Source of the DNA: a virus
Lineage: Duplodnaviria > Heunggongvirae > Uroviricota > Caudoviricetes
Length of the DNA: 10,205 bases
Direction: 5' to 3' (one strand)
IMG/VR virus record: IMGVR_UViG_2531839454_000024
Shown here: positions 1 to 8,027 of the stretch, piece after piece
How positions within the stretch are numbered: the first letter of the stretch is position 1
Layout: every line of letters begins with the position of its first letter
Translations under genes and position numbers: made by a program
The notes under the pieces: generated by a model
Database searches by the model: none
What the model was told of the DNA's origin: nothing
Seen by the model: only the letters and a program-made list of their open reading frames with translations

Positions 1-933
1 ATGGACAACGACAAAATTGATCAACACAGCGACGAAATTGAAGTTGAGAGCGAAGAAAAAGAGCGCGGCAAAAAAATAGAAATAGATGAAGACCGACTCC
101 CCTCCCGGGCGATGGCAATTCATGAGCATATCCGCCAGGATGGTGAAAAAGAGCTGGAACGCGACGCAATGGCGCTACTGTGGTCAGCCATTGCGGCGGG
201 TCTGTCGATGGGCGCTTCGCTACTGGCAAAAGGGATATTTCATGTCGAACTGGAAGGAGTGCCAGGCAGCTTCTTACTGGAGAATCTCGGTTATACCTTT
301 GGTTTTATTATCGTCATTATGGCCCCCCAGCAATTATTTACCGAAAACACCGTGACTGCGGTACTACCCGTCATGCAAAAACCGACAATGAGCAACGTCG
401 GCTTACTTATGCGATTATGGGGCGTCGTGCTGCTGGGTAATATTCTCGGGACAGGTATTGCTGCATGGGCATTTGAATATATGCCTATCTTCAATGAAGA
501 AACTCGCGATGCATTTGTCAAAATCGGCATGGATGTGATGAAGAACACCCCCAGCGAGATGTTTGCCAACGCGATCATTTCCGGCTGGCTGATCGCCACT
601 ATGGTTTGGATGTTTCCTGCTGCGGGTGCGGCAAAGATTGTGGTGATTATATTGATGACCTGGCTTATTGCACTGGGTGACACCACCCACATCGTTGTCG
701 GTTCTGTTGAAATCCTCTATCTGGTGTTTAACGGCACGCTGCACTGGAGCGATTTCATCTGGCCCTTCGCACTACCTACTTTAGCGGGGAACATCTGCGG
801 CGGCACCTTTATCTTCGCGTTAATGAGTCATGCACAGATTCGTAACGACATGAGCAACAAGCGTAAAGCAGAAGCACGCCAAAAAGCAGAACGTGCGGAA
901 AACATTAAGAAAAATGATAAAAACCCAGCATAA
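1..933 (+). CDS. yfdC: Formate/nitrite transporter (FNT) family inner membrane protein, YfdC-like
   Basis: 310-aa ORF starting at window position 1. Charged N-terminal tail followed by multiple hydrophobic helices. I recognise the sequence as E. coli YfdC, the gene that precedes argW in the chromosome. GC-rich codon usage typical of the core genome. Confidence 0.88.
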   Translation: MDNDKIDQHSDEIEVESEEKERGKKIEIDEDRLPSRAMAIHEHIRQDGEKELERDAMALLWSAIAAGLSMGASLLAKGIFHVELEGVPGSFLLENLGYTFGFIIVIMAPQQLFTENTVTAVLPVMQKPTMSNVGLLMRLWGVVLLGNILGTGIAAWAFEYMPIFNEETRDAFVKIGMDVMKNTPSEMFANAIISGWLIATMVWMFPAAGAAKIVVIILMTWLIALGDTTHIVVGSVEILYLVFNGTLHWSDFIWPFALPTLAGNICGGTFIFALMSHAQIRNDMSNKRKAEARQKAERAENIKKNDKNPA

Positions 934-992: not shown

Positions 993-1008
993 ATACTCAT
1001 GCCGCATT

Positions 1009-1083
1009 GTCCTCTTAGTTAAATGGATATAACGAGCCCCTCCTAAGGGCTAATTGCAGGTTCGATTCCTGCAGGGGACACTT
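1009..1083 (+). tRNA. argW: tRNA-Arg (anticodon CCU)
   Basis: Cloverleaf readable by eye: acceptor GTCCTCT / AGGGGAC, anticodon loop CTCCTAA with CCT anticodon, T-arm GCAGG-TTCGATT-CCTGC. Sequence ends ...GGGGACAC then TT (1082-1083) rather than CCA, so only the first C of the 3' CCA is encoded. Confidence 0.9.
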
Positions 1084-1256
1084 TAAAGACCTTTCTCTAC
1101 ATTTCACTTCATTACATAACCACTTAAAAAAAACAGTAAGTTATCACCGAATCGGCCTGATTTTCATTTCAGTTAATTTCATGACATTACAACCTCGTGA
1201 TGGTATAAGTGATGGTATTCCCCAGTTCGATATGCAGATACCATCAATTTACCAAA

Positions 1257-2543
1257 ATGAGTACAGATATGGCCATTAATGTGCTTTCCCCCAAACAGAT
1301 AGAAAACGCCAAGCCGAAGACCAATGATTACAAACTTACCGATGGAGGGAGTTTGTATCTACTGGTACGAAAGACTGGTGGAAAATACTGGCGTATGAAT
1401 TATCGTTTTGATGGAAAACAAGTGACATTGGCATTAGGGGTCTACCCAGATGTCTCACTTGCAACAGCGCGGAAACGGCGTGATGAAGCCAGGCAACTAC
1501 TAGCCGATGGCCGTGATCCTCGCGAAGCAAAGAAACCCAAAAAGGAAGACCCAATTTCCCCCACGTTCGAGAGTGTTGCCAGAGAGTGGCATAGTGGAAC
1601 GATGGGGCATCCTGAGTGGAAAGAGATCACCCGTAAAAAAATTCTCCGAGAAATGGAAAACCACCTCTTTCCTGCCATCGGTTCAAAGCCTATCGATACG
1701 CTCAAAACCCGTGACTTGATGCCGATGCTGGTTGAGATGACTGAGAAAGGAATTGGTGCCACAACGAGCCGGGTAAAAACCACTATGACGAGCATCTTCC
1801 GTTATGCCGTGCAACGTGGAATTGTCGATTACAACCCTGCCCACGATCTAAAAGGTGCAATTACGGCCCCCAAAGTACGACATCGCCCCGCACTACCTCT
1901 CGAACGTTTACCTGAACTGTTAGCGAAAACGAGAAGTTACACGGGAAGACCATTGACTCGCCTAGCAGTTCTCTTTTCCCTGCACACTTTTGTGCGATCC
2001 AGCGAACTACGACATGCCAGATGGGAGGAGATCGACATTGAAAATGGGCTATGGACGATACCAGGACAACGTGAAGAGATCGCAGGGGTTAAATTCTCAG
2101 ATCGGGGTGCAAAGATGGGGGCTGCTCATTATGTCCCGCTATCTAGTCAGGCTATCGGGGTACTGGAGGATATAAGGAAAATCAGTGGTGAATATCTGCT
2201 GGTTTTCCCCGGTGACAGCAACCCATATAAACCGATGAGCGAAAACACAGTTAATAAAGCACTGCGAACGATGGGTTACGACACTCAAACTGATGTATGC
2301 TTACATGGGTTCAGGGCGATGGCCTGCTCTGCACTGACCGAATCAGGACTCTGGTCACGCGATGCAGTTGAACGGCAGATGAGTCACCAAGAAAGAAACG
2401 AAGTGCGGGCAGCATATGTGCATCTTGCGCAGCACATGCAGGAACGCCGCAGAATGATGCAATGGTGGTCTAATTATCTGGAACTAAATAAGGACGAATT
2501 TCATGCTCCTTATGACTTATCAGGTATTAACATTATCAATTAA
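1257..2543 (+). CDS. int: P4-type tyrosine integrase (site-specific recombinase, tRNA-targeting)
   Basis: N-terminal arm-binding-type motif (KQIENAKPK...YKLTDGGSLYLLV...KYWRMNYRF...TLALGVYPDVSLATARKRRDEAR) typical of P4 Int. C-terminal catalytic region has HGFRAMA and a terminal AAYVHL tyrosine. Start is uncertain: ATG 1257 or ATG 1269; the 1209 GTG extension in the ORF track is unlikely. Sits directly 3' of a tRNA gene, as is usual for this family. Confidence 0.9.
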   Translation: MSTDMAINVLSPKQIENAKPKTNDYKLTDGGSLYLLVRKTGGKYWRMNYRFDGKQVTLALGVYPDVSLATARKRRDEARQLLADGRDPREAKKPKKEDPISPTFESVAREWHSGTMGHPEWKEITRKKILREMENHLFPAIGSKPIDTLKTRDLMPMLVEMTEKGIGATTSRVKTTMTSIFRYAVQRGIVDYNPAHDLKGAITAPKVRHRPALPLERLPELLAKTRSYTGRPLTRLAVLFSLHTFVRSSELRHARWEEIDIENGLWTIPGQREEIAGVKFSDRGAKMGAAHYVPLSSQAIGVLEDIRKISGEYLLVFPGDSNPYKPMSENTVNKALRTMGYDTQTDVCLHGFRAMACSALTESGLWSRDAVERQMSHQERNEVRAAYVHLAQHMQERRRMMQWWSNYLELNKDEFHAPYDLSGINIIN

Positions 2544-2556
2544 ATACTCTTATAAT
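2527..2556 (+). promoter_or_regulatory. Candidate sigma70 promoter for the orphan gene (TTAACA-N18-TATAAT)
   Basis: TTAACA at 2527-2532, 18-bp spacer, perfect TATAAT at 2551-2556. Overlaps the last codons of int. Followed by SD AGAGG (2564-2568) and ATG 2574. Confidence 0.4.
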
Positions 2557-2573
2557 TTAAAACAGAGGTCATA

Positions 2574-3455
2574 ATGCAGCATTCAACAGAGAATGAAACT
2601 ATATTCTTAGGAAATCTATGGATTGACAAAAAAATACCACCATTAGAATATTGTTCATTTGAACGCGCTTCAAGACTATTAGAATGCGAGATTGATGATT
2701 TATTACACCTATACGAAATAGGCGCTTTTAATATCGCATTCAAGGCGGATGGACTTGCAGTTAGATTTAATGTTAATTTCCTCAATAAAAATCAGAAAGT
2801 GGAAATTGACTTAATTCATCCCGTATTAACTAATCAATCACTAGAGATGGAATTTTCAACAATATGGTATGACCTTAAAGATGATTCCTTTGAACATTTT
2901 GAAAATGGGCTTCAAATTATAGGATTTGCCTGTGGTATTTGGTACGCCGATGATATGATAAGTGACATAAAAAATGGATTAGCTATAGATCCAGATTATG
3001 AATTCAGGCTTAAACCGGTAAAAATACGAGATAATGTTTTGATGGCAACGGCCTCATATGAAGGAAATAAGGTCATTGATATTCCATTTGAAGATCTTCT
3101 TATCATGCGAAGAGATTTAGAGTTAATATGGAAATCAGTAAAAACTGGAATTCCTATGCCAAGTTTACTTACGAAAAGAATTTCATCTGAACCTAAAATC
3201 CCCAAGCGATTAAATAACACTGCTGAGCATCATGCAAAAAATAGGGAGGGGTTATTAAATGCAGCCATATATATATTAGCAAAATACCCAAGCGAATGTC
3301 GTGGTGAAAGAAAAGAGATAAGTCCTGAAAAGTGGACTAACGCCATAATTAAACATTTAGGAGAGCTACCTCCAATATTTATCACTAATGAACAAGAAAT
3401 CTTAAGAAAATTACGATTAGCGGTTAATCATGCGGGATTAAAACAAAAGGGGTAG
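2574..3455 (+). CDS. Hypothetical protein, 293 aa, no family recognised; AT-rich orphan cargo gene
   Basis: Clean ORF with a strong SD 5 nt upstream. Markedly lower G+C than its neighbours (about one third by hand count of four 60-nt samples). No TM helices and no motif I can assign. Confidence 0.8.
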   Translation: MQHSTENETIFLGNLWIDKKIPPLEYCSFERASRLLECEIDDLLHLYEIGAFNIAFKADGLAVRFNVNFLNKNQKVEIDLIHPVLTNQSLEMEFSTIWYDLKDDSFEHFENGLQIIGFACGIWYADDMISDIKNGLAIDPDYEFRLKPVKIRDNVLMATASYEGNKVIDIPFEDLLIMRRDLELIWKSVKTGIPMPSLLTKRISSEPKIPKRLNNTAEHHAKNREGLLNAAIYILAKYPSECRGERKEISPEKWTNAIIKHLGELPPIFITNEQEILRKLRLAVNHAGLKQKG

Positions 3456-3521
3456 ACTGAAACAATCTACAGGTAGAGTTGATTACACTACCTTCACAGC
3501 ATTTTGATATCCCCATAGTAT

Positions 3522-3550
3522 CTGCCGTGTTCATTACATAACACGGCAGG
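3522..3550 (+). promoter_or_regulatory. Perfect 10-bp inverted repeat (CTGCCGTGTT-9 nt-AACACGGCAG) just upstream of alpA
   Basis: Arms 3522-3531 and 3541-3550 are exact reverse complements. The loop is CATTACATA. The right arm abuts the weak alpA SD. Could be a terminator for the upstream orphan gene (no U-tract) or an operator or RBS-sequestering hairpin. Confidence 0.35.
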
Positions 3551-3557
3551 TAATTTC

Positions 3558-3773
3558 ATGACATTAAAAACTTATCCTATCACTGGACATGCCCGCCCAC
3601 GAGCTACTGCTGACTTTTTGCAAATAAGTACGGTTACTCTCTGGCGCTGGGAAAAGAACAATCCTGAATTTCCCAAATCTATACGCATTTCAAAACGGGT
3701 ATCTGTTTACGATGCACAAGAAATTAGGCAGTGGGTTAAAGCTCAATCAGCAGGATTGGAGGAAGTAGTGTAA
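3558..3773 (+). CDS. alpA: AlpA-family phage transcriptional regulator (excisionase-like HTH)
   Basis: 71-aa protein with the Phage_AlpA-type pattern FLQISTVTLWRWEKNNPEFPKSIRIS...VYDAQEIRQWV. Located downstream of a P4-type int, as in CP4-57-type islands. Confidence 0.85.
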   Translation: MTLKTYPITGHARPRATADFLQISTVTLWRWEKNNPEFPKSIRISKRVSVYDAQEIRQWVKAQSAGLEEVV

Positions 3774-3791
3774 TGACAATATTAACAAAGC

Positions 3792-3813
3792 TGGGGAGAA
3801 AAAAGCCTCCCCA
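3792..3813. terminator. Hairpin between convergent alpA and RHH genes (possible bidirectional terminator)
   Basis: Stem TGGGGAG 3792-3798 / CTCCCCA 3807-3813 with an A-rich 8-nt loop. Lies between the alpA stop (3773) and the stop of the minus-strand ORF (3823). Confidence 0.35.
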
Positions 3814-3822
3814 ACGTATTAA

Positions 3823-4017
3823 TCAATTCTTTGGTTCTAAACCTCGGCTTTGTAACTCTTTGCGTAGAATGCGCTTGATCCAAGCCGCTAGCGATTCATC
3901 GCCATCCTGCTGTTGTGCTTGTTCCATCAGTTCACGCAGTTCAGGGTCAAGTCGGAACTGGAATGGCGGATTCCCACGTCTTTCATTTTTGTGTGTTGAC
4001 ACGTCAATTACACCCAT
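3823..4017 (-). CDS. Small ribbon-helix-helix (Arc/CopG-like) DNA-binding protein, putative satellite repressor
   Basis: 64-aa ORF. PPFQFRLDPELRELMEQ...SLAAWIKRILRKEL fits a beta-strand plus two-helix RHH pattern. Divergent from the downstream replication operon. No clear SD, so the start is uncertain. Confidence 0.55.
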   Translation of the reverse strand: MGVIDVSTHKNERRGNPPFQFRLDPELRELMEQAQQQDGDESLAAWIKRILRKELQSRGLEPKN

Positions 4018-4051
4018 TGTAATGTATTTATGTGTAATGACACATTACACA
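3996..4051 (+). promoter_or_regulatory. Candidate promoter and operator for the replication operon
   Basis: TTGACA 3996-4001, 16-bp spacer, TGTAAT 4018-4023. Directly downstream is a perfect palindrome TGTGTAATG-ACA-CATTACACA (arms 4031-4039 and 4043-4051). Confidence 0.4.
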
Positions 4052-4133
4052 CAGAAAAACAAAATAGCAACGCCCCGGAGTGTTTGCAGCAGCACCGAGG
4101 CGTCTGACCAGCACGTTATATGAGGTAACGAAG

Positions 4134-4310: not shown

Positions 4311-4662
4311 TTATCCGCACCCCGGCGAACGCTGGCAGCATGAACGTGGCTGGACGGTCACGATTATCCGATTAATAGAAGCCTCGCCCTCTGTGGCGCT
4401 GGTTAATCCTGAATTCAGCTGTGAAGTGCTGATACGTCATGACAGCGACAACCAGCTATCTTCCTGCCCTCTGGCATGGTTTGAACAGCGGTATACGCGC
4501 CTGTTTGATGTACCGCTCTTTAAGCCTGCACCAGCTCCTGCAGGCGGTAGTGGTTCCGGCCCGCTGACACTGCATCCGTCTGTGCTATTTATCCGCTGGC
4601 GGGAGCGTAGCATATGGCGTTCTGCTGAGCCTGACGACGGTCACTATTCAAAGTTTCTCTGA
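4303..4662 (+). CDS. Hypothetical protein (possibly Ash-family-like), 119 aa
   Basis: ATG 4303 overlaps the stop of the Icd-like gene by 8 nt, with SD GGAGGGGA upstream. Coding-like composition. Family assignment is only from memory of typical P4-like annotations. Confidence 0.55.
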   Translation: MRNYPHPGERWQHERGWTVTIIRLIEASPSVALVNPEFSCEVLIRHDSDNQLSSCPLAWFEQRYTRLFDVPLFKPAPAPAGGSGSGPLTLHPSVLFIRWRERSIWRSAEPDDGHYSKFL

Positions 4663-4978: not shown

Positions 4979-5358
4979 ACCAGCCGCAGGTTTCCATTTT
5001 CCCGGCAGAAATGACCACCGCGCTTTACCGGCGGGCTATTGCTTCAGCATGGCGGCAGAAAATGCTGAACGAAACTGGTAGTGATCAGTATGGTCCGCAC
5101 AGCCTGACGGTGGAGCGTATTGAAATGGCCATTGCGCTGCATATCGAGTGCGTACTGATTAACGAGTACGGCGAAGTGCAGGGCGCCGCTGCCGCGCTGG
5201 CACTGCTGACTGACATGCTGGAGCCATCACTGCTGACCGCGCCGCCGGTACTGACCGCGCGCGGCTGTGAAGTGATGGCGGAGATGTACCGCACGCTTCC
5301 GGCGGCCTTTGATGACTTCTGCAGTACCGGTGTGACGTTGTATGAGGGGGAAGTATGA
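4975..5358 (+). CDS. Hypothetical protein, 127 aa
   Basis: Translationally coupled on both sides (ATGA overlaps at 4975-4978 and 5355-5358). SD-like GAAGGAGG upstream. Confidence 0.6.
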   Translation: MNQPQVSIFPAEMTTALYRRAIASAWRQKMLNETGSDQYGPHSLTVERIEMAIALHIECVLINEYGEVQGAAAALALLTDMLEPSLLTAPPVLTARGCEVMAEMYRTLPAAFDDFCSTGVTLYEGEV

Positions 5359-8027
5359 CAATACAGACGGTTACGCAGATTTCAGCCGCCGCACGGGGGA
5401 AATGGCCCGTTATTCTGCAGATGCTGCGTATTGATGTACCTGAAAACGGCAGGCACGGCCCCTGCCCGAAATGTGGGGGCAAGGATCGTTTTCGCCTTGA
5501 TGACCTTGACGGGCGCGGGACGTGGATCTGCAGCCAGTGTGGCAATGGTGACGGTCTGGATCTGGTTAAGCTCGTAACCGGTTACAGCGTCAGAAAGGCT
5601 GCGCAGGAGGTGGCGCAGGTGCTTAATGTGCCGGATGTGCAGGAACTGCCTGTTAAGCCTGCCAGACAAAAAGCCCCTAAACGCGACATGGGTCTTACCG
5701 TGGCGGCGCTGATGAAAGAGAGCCACACGGGAGAAAGCGCCTATCTGACAGGAAAAGGGTTCGCCGGATACCCGGCCTCTCTGACCGGAAGCGTGCAGCA
5801 TATCAGCGGTAAGGATTTTCCTGCCGGTTCCCTGCTGTTACCACTCACGACCAACACCGGAGCCGTGACCGGTGCACAGCTTATCGCCCCGACGGGTGAA
5901 AAAAGCATACTGCCCGGCAGCACGATGAAAGGCGCGTTTGTGTCGCTCAGCCCGTTACCGTCTGAACCACCGGTACAGGTGGTGATTACCGAAGGTTACG
6001 CTACGGCGCTGACGGTAAGCCAGCTCACTGCCGGATGCGTAGTGGCTGCCATATCTGCGGGCAACCTGCCCAATGTGGCGCAGTCGCTGCGGGCACGCTG
6101 GCCTGAGGTAAAAATTATCATCGCCGGTGATAACGATTTTCAGGACGGGGGGGAGAATCCCGGCAGAGCCTTTGCTGAACGGGCGGCAAAAGCTGTTGGC
6201 GGCTGGATGACGCTGCCACCAGGAGAGATTAAGGCTGACTGGAATGACTTTCATCGGGAGCACGGTATTACCCGTGCCCGTGAAGCCTTTCGCAACGGTC
6301 TGGTACTGTGCGGGGAAGGCCGCACGCAACTGCCGCACGGGTTCCGTCTTACCCAGGAATATCTCTGGTATGAAAAGCAGGTACAGCGCAACGGTGAGAC
6401 GGAGATCCAGAACGTCAAAATATGCAGCCCGCTGCGCGTGACGGCAATCACCTGCGATGCCGATGGCGGTAACTTCGGACGACTGCTGGAATGGGAAGAT
6501 ACGTGGGGTGAGTGTCGCCGCTGGGCGATGCCGATGGAAATGCTGAGCGGCAGTGGTGAGGAACTGCGCCGGGTACTGCTGGTTAACGGGCTGTCTTATA
6601 TCAGCACCACCGGTGAGGCACGCGCACGCCTGATGGAATATATCTCACTGTGTAAACCGGAACGCCGCGTGACCTGCGTCAGTCGTACTGGCTGGCATGG
6701 TCAGGTTTACGTCCTGCAGGATGAGGTCAGCGGTGAAGGTGCAGAGGGTGTCATTCTCCAGACCACTTCCGTGCAGGGGCGTGATTTCCGCGTGTCGGGC
6801 ACAACAGAGGAATGGCGGGAGCATGTATCCCGCTACTGTACCGGCAACTCCCGCGTGGCATTTGCTGTCAGCCTGGCCTTTGCTGCACCACTGTTACGGC
6901 TGGTTGGTATGGACGGCGGCGGCTACCACCTAAAAGGGGAATCGACAGACGGTAAGACCACCACCATGAAAGCGGCAACCTCCGTCTGCGGCGGGCCTGA
7001 CTACTGGCAGACATGGCGGGCCACCGGCAACGCGCTGGAGGGATGCGCCAGCCGCCGCAACGATGCCGCCATGATGCTTGATGAGATCCGGGAAGTTGAC
7101 GGACGCGAGGCAGGCAATATCGCCTACATGCTGGCAAACGGTCAGGGCAAGGGCCGTGCCGGTACGGACGGTGAGCTGCGTACCCGTAAGCAGTGGCGCC
7201 TGTTGTTCTTTTCAACTGGCGAGTTGTCTCTGACCGAACATGCGGCAAAGGCCGGTGAGCGTACTTTTGCCGGGATGGAAGTCAGGATGATCCAGATCCC
7301 AAGCGATTCCGGGAAGTTTGGCGTTTTTGAGGAGCTGCACGGCTTCGACAGCGGCAAGGCTCTGGCAGAGCATCTTGAATGGGCCACGTCCTGCTACTAC
7401 GGTTCGCCGTTCCGGGAGTGGCTGAAAGCACTGACCGCTGATCTTAACGGACTAACGGCACAGGCAAAATCGCTGATGAAGGAATATGCTGCCGCCCTGA
7501 CTCCTAAAGATGCAGGCAATCAGGTGGGCCGGGCTGTGAACCGCTTTGCACTGGTGGCGATGGCAGGTGAACTGGCAACCCGTCTGGGTATCACCGGCTG
7601 GCCTGAGGGTGAAGCACTGCGGGCAACCCGCGTCTGCCTGAACGCATGGCTGAAAGATCGCGGGCACACCGCCAATCAGGAAGATATCGCCGCACTGGAG
7701 CAGGTTCGCAGTTTCTTTACCGCGAATCAGTACAGCCGCTTTGCAGACTGGTATGACGAGCGCAACCGCCCCGGCAATATGGTGGGCTGGCGCAGGGTGG
7801 AGAAAGGCAGTACCGCGCAGGGCACGGAAGCTGTCACTACGTTCTATGTCATGCCGTCCGGCTGGAAAGAAATCTGCAGGGGATTTGACCCGCGTAAGGT
7901 GGCGCGTCTGTGCGCAGATCGTGGATACCTGCTGCCCTCCACTGATGGCAAACTCCAGACAACCATTCGCCCGCCAGAGATGAATCCCCGCAGGCTCTAT
8001 GTCTTCAACAGCGAGGTGCCGGGTTAA
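5355..8027 (+). CDS. Primase-helicase, P4 alpha-like (zinc-ribbon + TOPRIM + P-loop NTPase, DUF927-type)
   Basis: 890 aa. N-terminal CPKCGG...CSQCG zinc ribbon; TOPRIM-like ITEGYATALTV and IIAGDND; Walker A GESTDGKTT and Walker B-like MMLDEI. Iteron array lies immediately downstream. Confidence 0.9.
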   Translation: MTIQTVTQISAAARGKWPVILQMLRIDVPENGRHGPCPKCGGKDRFRLDDLDGRGTWICSQCGNGDGLDLVKLVTGYSVRKAAQEVAQVLNVPDVQELPVKPARQKAPKRDMGLTVAALMKESHTGESAYLTGKGFAGYPASLTGSVQHISGKDFPAGSLLLPLTTNTGAVTGAQLIAPTGEKSILPGSTMKGAFVSLSPLPSEPPVQVVITEGYATALTVSQLTAGCVVAAISAGNLPNVAQSLRARWPEVKIIIAGDNDFQDGGENPGRAFAERAAKAVGGWMTLPPGEIKADWNDFHREHGITRAREAFRNGLVLCGEGRTQLPHGFRLTQEYLWYEKQVQRNGETEIQNVKICSPLRVTAITCDADGGNFGRLLEWEDTWGECRRWAMPMEMLSGSGEELRRVLLVNGLSYISTTGEARARLMEYISLCKPERRVTCVSRTGWHGQVYVLQDEVSGEGAEGVILQTTSVQGRDFRVSGTTEEWREHVSRYCTGNSRVAFAVSLAFAAPLLRLVGMDGGGYHLKGESTDGKTTTMKAATSVCGGPDYWQTWRATGNALEGCASRRNDAAMMLDEIREVDGREAGNIAYMLANGQGKGRAGTDGELRTRKQWRLLFFSTGELSLTEHAAKAGERTFAGMEVRMIQIPSDSGKFGVFEELHGFDSGKALAEHLEWATSCYYGSPFREWLKALTADLNGLTAQAKSLMKEYAAALTPKDAGNQVGRAVNRFALVAMAGELATRLGITGWPEGEALRATRVCLNAWLKDRGHTANQEDIAALEQVRSFFTANQYSRFADWYDERNRPGNMVGWRRVEKGSTAQGTEAVTTFYVMPSGWKEICRGFDPRKVARLCADRGYLLPSTDGKLQTTIRPPEMNPRRLYVFNSEVPG

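Follow-up and report, generated by a model that had tools for sequence, protein, structure and literature searches.

Related boxes in the integrase arm and the alpA leader of a P4-like satellite, and a covarying hairpin over the alpA ribosome-binding site

The IMG/VR virus record IMGVR_UViG_2531839454_000024, a stretch of 10,205 nucleotides which is referred to below as the window, is a P4-like satellite of phage inserted at the tRNA-Arg gene argW, and it raises the question of why nearly the same short sequences should stand upstream of its integrase gene, int, and again upstream of alpA, a gene of the Vis/AlpA family. An earlier note on this DNA offered two answers: that a shared operator set co-regulates int and alpA, or that the repeats are recombination scars left when int and an orphan cargo gene were swapped in as a cassette. 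The repeated blocks are real, non-random and placed within the architecture expected of such an element, and they are best explained as cis-regulatory boxes of the site-specific recombination module rather than as duplication scars. New here are a leader hairpin which would sequester the Shine-Dalgarno (SD) sequence of alpA, is supported by covariation, and carries a conserved box in its loop, and the reclassification of the supposed orphan gene.

The comparisons which support these statements used 35 distinct int-upstream sequences (from E. coli, Enterobacter, Buttiauxella, Rahnella, Scandinavium, Citrobacter and metagenomes), 20 distinct alpA leaders for the helix test, and 19 representative loci for the test of likeness between the attachment (att) arm and the leader; individual loci are identified by L numbers. 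The coordinates of the features are collected in Table 1.

The alpA leader hairpin

The ATG embedded in the second 20-mer block is, as the earlier note held, the start codon of alpA, whose product matches the Pfam family PF05930. This family is also matched by P4 Vis and by the AlpA of CP4-57, and AlpA is presumed to be the small winged-helix recombination directionality factor (RDF) of the satellite. Directly upstream of the start codon the leader folds into a hairpin in which the SD sequence lies within the right arm, paired to the AUCU of the left arm, and both alpA-side blocks are part of this structure or of the initiation region that follows it. The helix is kept across the relatives: 88% of cells are paired over the 20 distinct leaders, compared to 25-51% when the partner is slid, and four pairs are altered on both sides (15 cells), giving a covariation score which was reached by none of 500 shuffles. 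The pair flanking the SD, for example, is U-A in seven leaders and C-G in six. The loop behaves differently from the stem, in that its sequence is conserved while the stem varies by compensation; a box of the form RATTACAY, with invariant A, T and A positions, is kept in the loop in all alpA lineages.

The length of the loop ranges from 8 to about 22 nt between lineages, which favours a nucleic-acid hairpin over a dimeric protein operator; the reading of the inverted repeat as a dimeric operator was rejected on account of this variable arm spacing. The hairpin was also rejected as a terminator, since there is no U-tract after it and no plus-strand terminator was called between 1000 and 4200, and on reading the sequence no partner hexamer was found at a spacing that would make the alpA-side box a promoter element. 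A permissive scan of the whole window with Rfam 15 matched only the tRNA; neither the hairpin nor an immunity RNA was assigned to a family. A RybB-like match at 3496-3559, which includes UUUGAUAUCCCCAU, scored 21.5 bits, short of the gathering score of 40 (E = 0.99), and falls partly in lineage-specific spacer, so the resemblance is probably due to chance.

A candidate promoter for alpA overlaps the base of the hairpin. Its -10 hexamer ends in the first two anti-SD bases, so transcripts starting from it would lack most of the left arm, an arrangement that would give fold-back logic. A promoter-like match recurs at the same position in about three independent spacer types and is absent in about five others, and where it is absent, the strongest promoter-like sequences precede the entire hairpin. 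The evidence that this site is a promoter with fold-back logic is weak, and the idea is a tentative one.

The repeated boxes and the arm of attL

The identity of the two pairs of blocks was borne out by direct reading of the sequence: the copies of the 13-mer agree at 13 of 13 positions, and those of the 20-mer at 19 of 20. When the 20-mer pattern is sought with up to three mismatches, exactly these two sites are returned, where 0.00 are expected (200 shuffles). The 13-mer and the core of the 20-mer are themselves variants of one motif (TTCATTACAT and TTCATGACAT), and the merged motif TTCATKACATWAC has eight matches at up to two mismatches compared to 0.80 expected, a number that no shuffle reached. 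Every copy of the box fits two tandem pentamers, CATKA-CAYWA, and the strong boxes are all on the sense strand. The heptamer CATTACA occurs seven times in the whole 15-kb island, and six of these copies are non-coding and fall in control regions, two in the att arm and the stretch ahead of int (1110 and 1185), one in the alpA leader (3532) and three in a divergent region (4018-4049); the seventh (3769) straddles the alpA stop codon. A minus-strand copy of the motif at 3765-3777 was set aside, being kept neither in L002 nor in L003. The near-palindromic 16-mer core TAATnnCATGnnATTA to which the earlier note drew attention is present in the window, but its left half varies on the int side in relatives, where the counterparts are TGATTTCATG, TACCTTCATG and TCTCTTCATG.

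On the int side the blocks are part of an att arm of recognizable design. Both boxes (1108 and 1178) are placed on the int-proximal arm, with the core to one side and the Int arm-type sites to the other, and none was found near attR when the attR arm and the island were scanned. The distal box is kept as GTCATTACACAAA in one int lineage (L013, L023 and L035-37) and is degenerate in the other int lineages. The proximal box is much more widely conserved: TTCATGACAWTRCA is retained in all 35 of the distinct int-upstream sequences and TTCATGACATTACA in 30, the box aligns to the arm repeats without gaps in 10 lineages, and a second TTCA lies 10 bp upstream of its own TTCA; a module consisting of TTCA-N6-TTCATGACATTACA and then the arm repeats is found in every relative. 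The 20-mer lies 8 bp to the core-proximal side of the arm-type repeats. The island has five copies of these repeats in all, three next to int and two at 60-70 bp from attR on its inner side; in L012 all three of the int-side repeats have changed together, to TGCGGGTAT / ATACCCGCA, and this concerted change is what Int arm-type sites should show.

The ATGACA within the proximal box and the TATAAG that follows it probably form the int promoter, with transcription starting at about 1216, in which case the first 20-mer would span about -47 to -28. The distance between the hexamers is 17 nt in all lineages, and the -10 hexamer takes the form TAT(A/C)(A/G/T)(G/T/A). The same stretch contains the 32-codon open reading frame (ORF) that the earlier note saw opening at the ATG of the first 20-mer, and the ORF list contains it with the end point that was claimed. 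This frame is open for at least 25 codons in all lineages, across conserved arm-site DNA only, and its end point varies. Because its ATG lies upstream of the predicted int transcription start, and because its openness is confined to conserved DNA, it is probably not a gene. In two loci (L009 3431-3527 and L010 3431-3527) the frame is continuous with int, to which it would add an N-terminal extension of 30 residues, while in the remaining lineages its stop codon is no more than about 25 nt away from where int begins.

Recognition of the boxes and the competing explanations

From the observed positions and conservation of the boxes, and from the covariation seen in the arm sites and in the hairpin, we infer a binder, a promoter and a direction for each regulatory effect. 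The explanation preferred, tentatively and with somewhat less than even confidence, is that a single family of boxes (CATKA-CAYWA) is recognised by AlpA both at attL and at its own leader. AlpA is favoured as the binder because the att-arm boxes are positioned like the RDF boxes of P4 (Vis) and KplE1 (TorI) and because of the literature on RDFs that lower int expression. At attL, AlpA would help Int to build the excision complex and, by occluding the -35 hexamer of int, would switch the int promoter off; at its own leader it would provide feedback through autoregulation. The hairpin would meanwhile hold alpA untranslated in read-through transcripts from int and from gene X, the gene between int and alpA. 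No plus-strand terminator lies between int and alpA, and a strong promoter-like site (TTAACA-18-TATAAT, matching the sigma-70 consensus at 11 of 12 positions) is present at 2527-2556, inside the 3' end of int and just upstream of X. If the candidate alpA promoter is real, the result would be fold-back inhibition of the kind found in IS10.

The earlier suggestion that AlpA controls int finds support in the literature on relatives, namely P4 Vis, KplE1 TorI and CP4So AlpA. P4 Vis and KplE1 TorI repress int (PMC2951348, PMC7286903); int expression in P4 is reduced by Int as well as by Vis, the latter being required for excision (PMC7286903, PMC2951348); and the AlpA of CP4So is an excisionase (PMC5148205).

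Several observations count against recognition of both sets of boxes by AlpA, and one of these is that the two blocks are not conserved as a pair in aligned relatives. The alpA-side 20-mer is confined to one leader type, occurring only with window-type alpA (at least 84% identity), while the int-side block travels with int; the other alpA leaders have CCTATGATTACAC, TTCATATGACTATC, ACATATGCACACA or ATATATGACTATAC at the corresponding position. The identities of int and alpA to the window are uncoupled (93% for int and 68% for alpA in L032, 76% and 92% in L002), in agreement with the separate integrase history reported for P4-like elements (PMC8628076), and in the recombinant L032 an exact int-side 20-mer is combined with a different alpA leader, so that the pairing is lost. 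In a test of the best 13-mer match between att arm and leader, the likeness was significant in the window, L002, L023 and L045, all of which have the window-type leader, and not significant in L025, which has it too (P = 0.23). Twelve of the 19 loci were clearly at the shuffle level (P 0.29-1.0) and three more gave P 0.10-0.16, and these 15 loci all carry an alpA leader of another type. As far as these sequences indicate, then, selection does not hold the two blocks alike across the family.

What is common to the family is a looser box, which appears as CATTACA in the int box, as RATTACAY in the hairpin loop, and in the distal att box of several lineages. Matches of at least 10 of 11 positions between the distal att arm and the hairpin are found in 4 of 13 natural pairs (31%), in 15% of cross-lineage pairs and in 2% of shuffled pairs, which means that natural pairs match only slightly better than pairs drawn from different lineages. 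In some lineages a variant is common to both places, as are ACATAAC of the window, ACACAA of L023 and ACGTT of L005, and in MITQ-type leaders the loop box and the start-codon box are near-identical direct repeats, GATTACACAA. The evidence for one recognition motif shared across the family is moderate, and that for cognate covariation of the box with AlpA is weak; helix-turn-helix variants of AlpA do correlate with loop-box variants, and this correlation is confounded by the physical linkage of the two.

Other points weigh on the same side. The boxes are irregularly spaced, 70 bp apart at attL but 25 or 38 bp apart at alpA, and classical RDF arrays are spaced differently from the boxes here. 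The predicted int -10 hexamer has no final T, and the G at its sixth position is the reason that a consensus promoter scan does not list it. The GTAATG/CATTAC palindromes at 4005-4055 adjoin a small minus-strand ORF; L003 keeps both the ORF and the palindromes, while L002 has another type of small ORF with another palindrome, ATGGTAATTACCAT. Since these palindromes covary with the small ORF and not with AlpA, the CATTACA heptamer is not diagnostic of AlpA. Instead of AlpA, the protein made from gene X or one of the host might bind the boxes, or no protein might do so. The shared operator set proposed in the earlier note thus survives as the best functional guess for this lineage but not as a conserved pair of blocks, and it is weaker than proposed; the int-side copy is part of the generic att-arm sequence of the integrase family.

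The main rival to recognition by AlpA, unlikely but to be taken seriously, is that no factor is common to the two sites, the int-side sequence being promoter and att arm and the alpA-side sequence being hairpin loop and translation-initiation region, with a likeness that has no regulatory meaning and arose by drift under similar A/T-rich constraints or through a short gene-conversion patch. The constraints can be named: the SD is CAGGT, and the Met-Thr codons ATGACA stand against a -35 hexamer ATGACA. Generic elements (CAGGT, ATG and AC) make up about half of the 20-mer. The restriction of the 20-mer pairing to one leader type, the chance-level likeness in 12 of the 19 lineages, and the independent evolution of the two modules seen in L032 and L005 are all what this explanation would predict, and a 2-nt deletion and a few substitutions are what separate the start region of the window type from that of L005. 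It has more difficulty with the 13/13 and 19/20 identities, which occur in the same order within two short spacers and are far beyond chance, with a loop sequence conserved beyond the needs of the stem, and with the related box in the att arm of several int lineages at 7-15 times the shuffle rate. A binder other than AlpA is improbable, the candidates being protein X, the small YlcI/YnfO-like protein and a nucleoid protein of the host. X is always encoded between int and alpA, the inverted repeats in the X-alpA spacer are specific to the X lineage, the N-terminal 45 amino acids are the most conserved part of X, and the palindromes at 4005-4055 follow the small-ORF type; but X has no detectable DNA-binding domain or fold match, L002 keeps the same int and alpA boxes with a different small ORF and operator type, and no clear consensus for IHF, CRP or DnaA was seen in the boxes by eye.

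The boxes might also act at the level of RNA, as operators through which AlpA represses translation from the int leader and the alpA leader; on the int side the transcripts would be driven from the tRNA promoter, and the 20-mer would be the initiation region of the upstream ORF. This reading is possible on thin support, and its probability is distinctly low, as is, by a shade more, that of its specific form in which the 20-mer is a shared RNA operator, a Vis-family RDF represses translation of the upstream ORF/int and of alpA, and the hairpin-loop box is a further RNA contact. In its favour are the proposal that P4 Vis binds int mRNA (Piazzolla 2006, as related in PMC2951348), the P4-type int of ICEKp1 that is driven from the adjacent tRNA promoter (PMC13023037), the sense-strand orientation of all the strong boxes with no plus-strand terminator called from the tRNA to alpA, an upstream ORF that is open in all lineages and closes near the int start, and the CAGGT that precedes its ATG in L035 and L037. 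Set against these are the second-hand nature of the P4 Vis-mRNA claim, the AGTT that the window copy has where the SD would be, an upstream ORF peptide that is conserved only where the DNA sites are, and the finding that no conserved RNA structure presents the int-side boxes, where only the arm repeats pair. If the 20-mer were a shared RNA operator, the suggestion that P4 Vis binds int mRNA would extend to the whole satellite family.

The scar explanation, in which int and its cargo were swapped in as a cassette between alpA-leader-like repeats, would account for the strong differences in gene X between close relatives and for the reassortment of Int and AlpA types, but it is already contradicted by the sequences compared and is the least probable of all, its chance being slight indeed. 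Nucleotide homology of the window to L002, L025, L004, L013, L032 and L005 stops near the 3' end of int (2477-2515) and resumes at the base of the hairpin (3519-3536, or 3605 for L005), and from these breaks the divergent segment is gene X alone. The repeats are therefore not at both junctions (~2480-2515 and 3519-3536), since the first block is upstream of int; in all lineages, as in P4, int and the int-side block remain co-linear, the alpA hairpins of the various lineages are orthologous and not chimeric, and no relative was found with alpA directly after the att site. Int and AlpA types do reassort independently and X diverges, but X is not cargo. Nor is X an orphan: in every lineage a single plus-strand ORF of 290-331 amino acids lies between int and alpA, and the X proteins are all homologous (24-53% identity), with the N-terminal 45 or so amino acids most conserved and with W16, E25, C27, R31, L36, C38, D42, H45 and G50 invariant. 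On these comparisons X is reclassified as a conserved, fast-evolving core gene.

Known systems and the setting of the element

The element is recognized as P4-like by its tRNA-Arg, its P4-type Int, its AlpA-family protein, a DUF927 primase, and homologues of Psu and Sid. The genes downstream of attL are, in order, int, gene X, alpA, the primase gene, sid and psu, and int, whose product has the domains Arm-DNA-bind_3, Phage_int_M and Phage_integrase, is co-oriented with the tRNA gene that carries the att core. In the chromosome NZ_CP025856, which is identical to the window, the far boundary of the island, some 14.9 kb further on, is marked by a repeat of the tRNA 3' end, and at least 80% of bases 1000-4100 are present in 63 of 5,426 complete E. 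coli genomes.

Table 1. Coordinates of the features of the window discussed in the text
Feature	Position	Strand	Details
yfdC	1-933		
tRNA-Arg (CCU), argW	1009..1081	+	ARAGORN; Rfam tRNA 63.4 bits
att core TTCGATTCCTGCAGGG, 3' part of tRNA	1061-1076		second copy at attR, L001 33941
13-mer copy 1 TTCATTACATAAC	1108..1120	+	distal (core-proximal) box of attL arm
20-mer copy 1 CAGTTAATTTCATGACATTA	1170..1189	+	proximal box; covers predicted int -35 ATGACA 1181-1186
Upstream ORF, 32 codons	1181..1279	+	start ATG inside predicted -35 hexamer
Int arm-type sites TGATGGTAT	1198-1206, 1210-1218, inverted 1238-1246		conserved GTTCGATA between (1198..1246)
Predicted int -10 TATAAG	1204..1209	+	17 nt after ATGACA; overlaps arm repeat 1
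int, P4-type tyrosine integrase	1269..2543	+	RefSeq start 1269; alternative start 1257
Gene X, 293 aa	2574..3455	+	positionally conserved, fast-evolving family
Candidate alpA promoter TTCACA-17-TAGTAT	3493..3521	+	9/12 consensus match
alpA leader hairpin, 13 bp	3519..3552	+	-19.7 kcal/mol, z = -5.6
Hairpin left arm	3519-3531	+	contains anti-SD AUCU
Hairpin loop CAUUACAU	3532-3539	+	
Hairpin right arm	3540-3552	+	contains alpA SD AGGU (3548-3551)
13-mer copy 2 TTCATTACATAAC	3530..3542	+	last 2 nt of left arm, entire loop, first 3 nt of right arm
20-mer copy 2 CAGGTAATTTCATGACATTA	3547..3566	+	CAGGT (stem end/SD), spacer AATTTC, ATG 3558, codons 2-3 ACA TTA
alpA, 71 aa, Vis/AlpA family	3558..3773	+	PF05930 31.6 bits vs cut-off 21
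Small ORF	3823-4017	-	YlcI/YnfO family by annotation in some genomes
Icd-like gene and DUF5375 gene	downstream of small minus-strand ORF		
Toprim/DUF927 primase	5355-8027		Sid-like and Psu proteins also encoded

The closest parallels to the arrangement at attL are in P4 itself, where a P4-type integrase gene likewise adjoins a tRNA core, the int start is preceded by a pair of direct arm repeats and an inverted one, with two more on the other arm (by the P4 annotation), a -35/-10 pair straddles the first repeats as is predicted for the window (TTGAAA-18-CATAAT at the annotated arm repeats), the RDF belongs to the same Pfam family, PF05930, and the boxes are confined to the int-proximal arm. According to Cali 2004, P4 reportedly has its two Vis boxes (Box I and Box II) in the stretch that separates int from the core. 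The sequences of the arm repeats and boxes are however unrelated in the two elements (the arm repeats are ATTGGGGGCAT in P4 and TGATGGTAT in the window), the AlpA of the window is only distantly similar to Vis (hhalign probability 17%), vis is far from int in P4 whereas the window has the order int-X-alpA, and P4 vis has no SD-sequestering hairpin. KplE1 (CPS-53) shares the argW tRNA, the tRNA-then-int orientation and an attL that overlaps the int promoter, the latter being a predicted one in the window; there the sites for TorI and the arm sites for IntS overlap the intS promoter at the same tRNA, and int is repressed both by Int itself and by the RDF (PMC2951348). The integrase/RDF pair of KplE1 is unrelated to that of the window, the TorI gene is at the far end of the prophage, and binding has been shown there by experiment, whereas for the window we infer it. 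CP4-57 of E. coli K-12 resembles the window in its intA-yfjH-alpA order, its adjoining tRNA-like gene and an AlpA that is in PF05930, and differs in having yfjH on the opposite strand, in having no box common to the intA and alpA upstream regions (best 10/13, chance level) and in having no equivalent hairpin; the shared boxes and the hairpin are both absent from P4 and from CP4-57, the two elements compared in this respect.

For IS10 and IS50, Davis, Simons and Kleckner are said to have described in 1985 a fold-back inhibition in which a sequence ahead of the gene's own transcription start pairs with the ribosome-binding site, with silencing limited to read-through transcripts. Inhibition of this kind would follow from the candidate alpA promoter, since its -10 runs into the anti-SD; the difference is that no more than about 3 of 8 spacer types have a promoter-like match at this position. 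Two further models were rejected. Iterons of the P4-type primase (TnTTCACC) form no cluster anywhere in the island, where 31 matches to nnTTCACn compare to 29 expected, and the antiterminator model of Pseudomonas AlpA is inapplicable to a protein of 71 amino acids, the Pseudomonas protein being much larger, with a ring domain, and reading GGGACG between the -35 and -10 (PMC9371919).

A number of side observations concern gene X and its surroundings. Examples of X in relatives are found at L002 3457-4431, L004 3537-4415 and L009 4890-5882. For X of the window there was no Pfam, PHROG, PADLOC or PDB sequence match, comparison with AlpA profiles found no relation, and an AlphaFold2 model (pLDDT, the predicted local distance difference test score, 64, which is moderate) had no fold match in the PDB. 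The X-alpA spacer has inverted repeats which differ by X lineage and could be operators or terminators: in the window these are GTAGA-N9-TCTAC (3453-3471) and GGTAG-N11-CTACC (3473-3493), the latter with GATTACA in its loop, while the palindrome AGTAAGCTTACT is present twice in each of L004 (~4416-4450), L007 and L012 (~100 nt ahead of alpA in the last two).

Others concern the insertion site. The tRNA-Arg gene of the integrated element is without its encoded 3' CCA (window 1076-1085), attL being GGGGACAC-TTT, and the attR side retains ACACCA (L001 33950-33962). Other lineages have ACAATAC or ACACCATT. Some copies of the satellite (L003 1638-2110; L019, L034 and L038-L043) are not directly at argW and lie instead behind a torI-carrying prophage, and the prophage-satellite junction in such copies has only CTGCAGGGGACA of the core, which points to occupancy of argW by the two elements in tandem. 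The satellite of the reference chromosome has its ogr/delta-like gene interrupted by the IS66-family insertion ISCro1 (L001 28726-31705).

Apart from the leader hairpin and the status of gene X, the architecture is as expected for P4-type integration modules. The excision of satellites and islands depends on the timing of RDF production, and the control of RDF genes is poorly known (PMC2951348). The family described here provides a compact, testable case of such control, in which a covarying hairpin would hide the ribosome site of alpA, the conserved box in its loop is met again in the att arm, and the two sites have come apart in natural recombinants.

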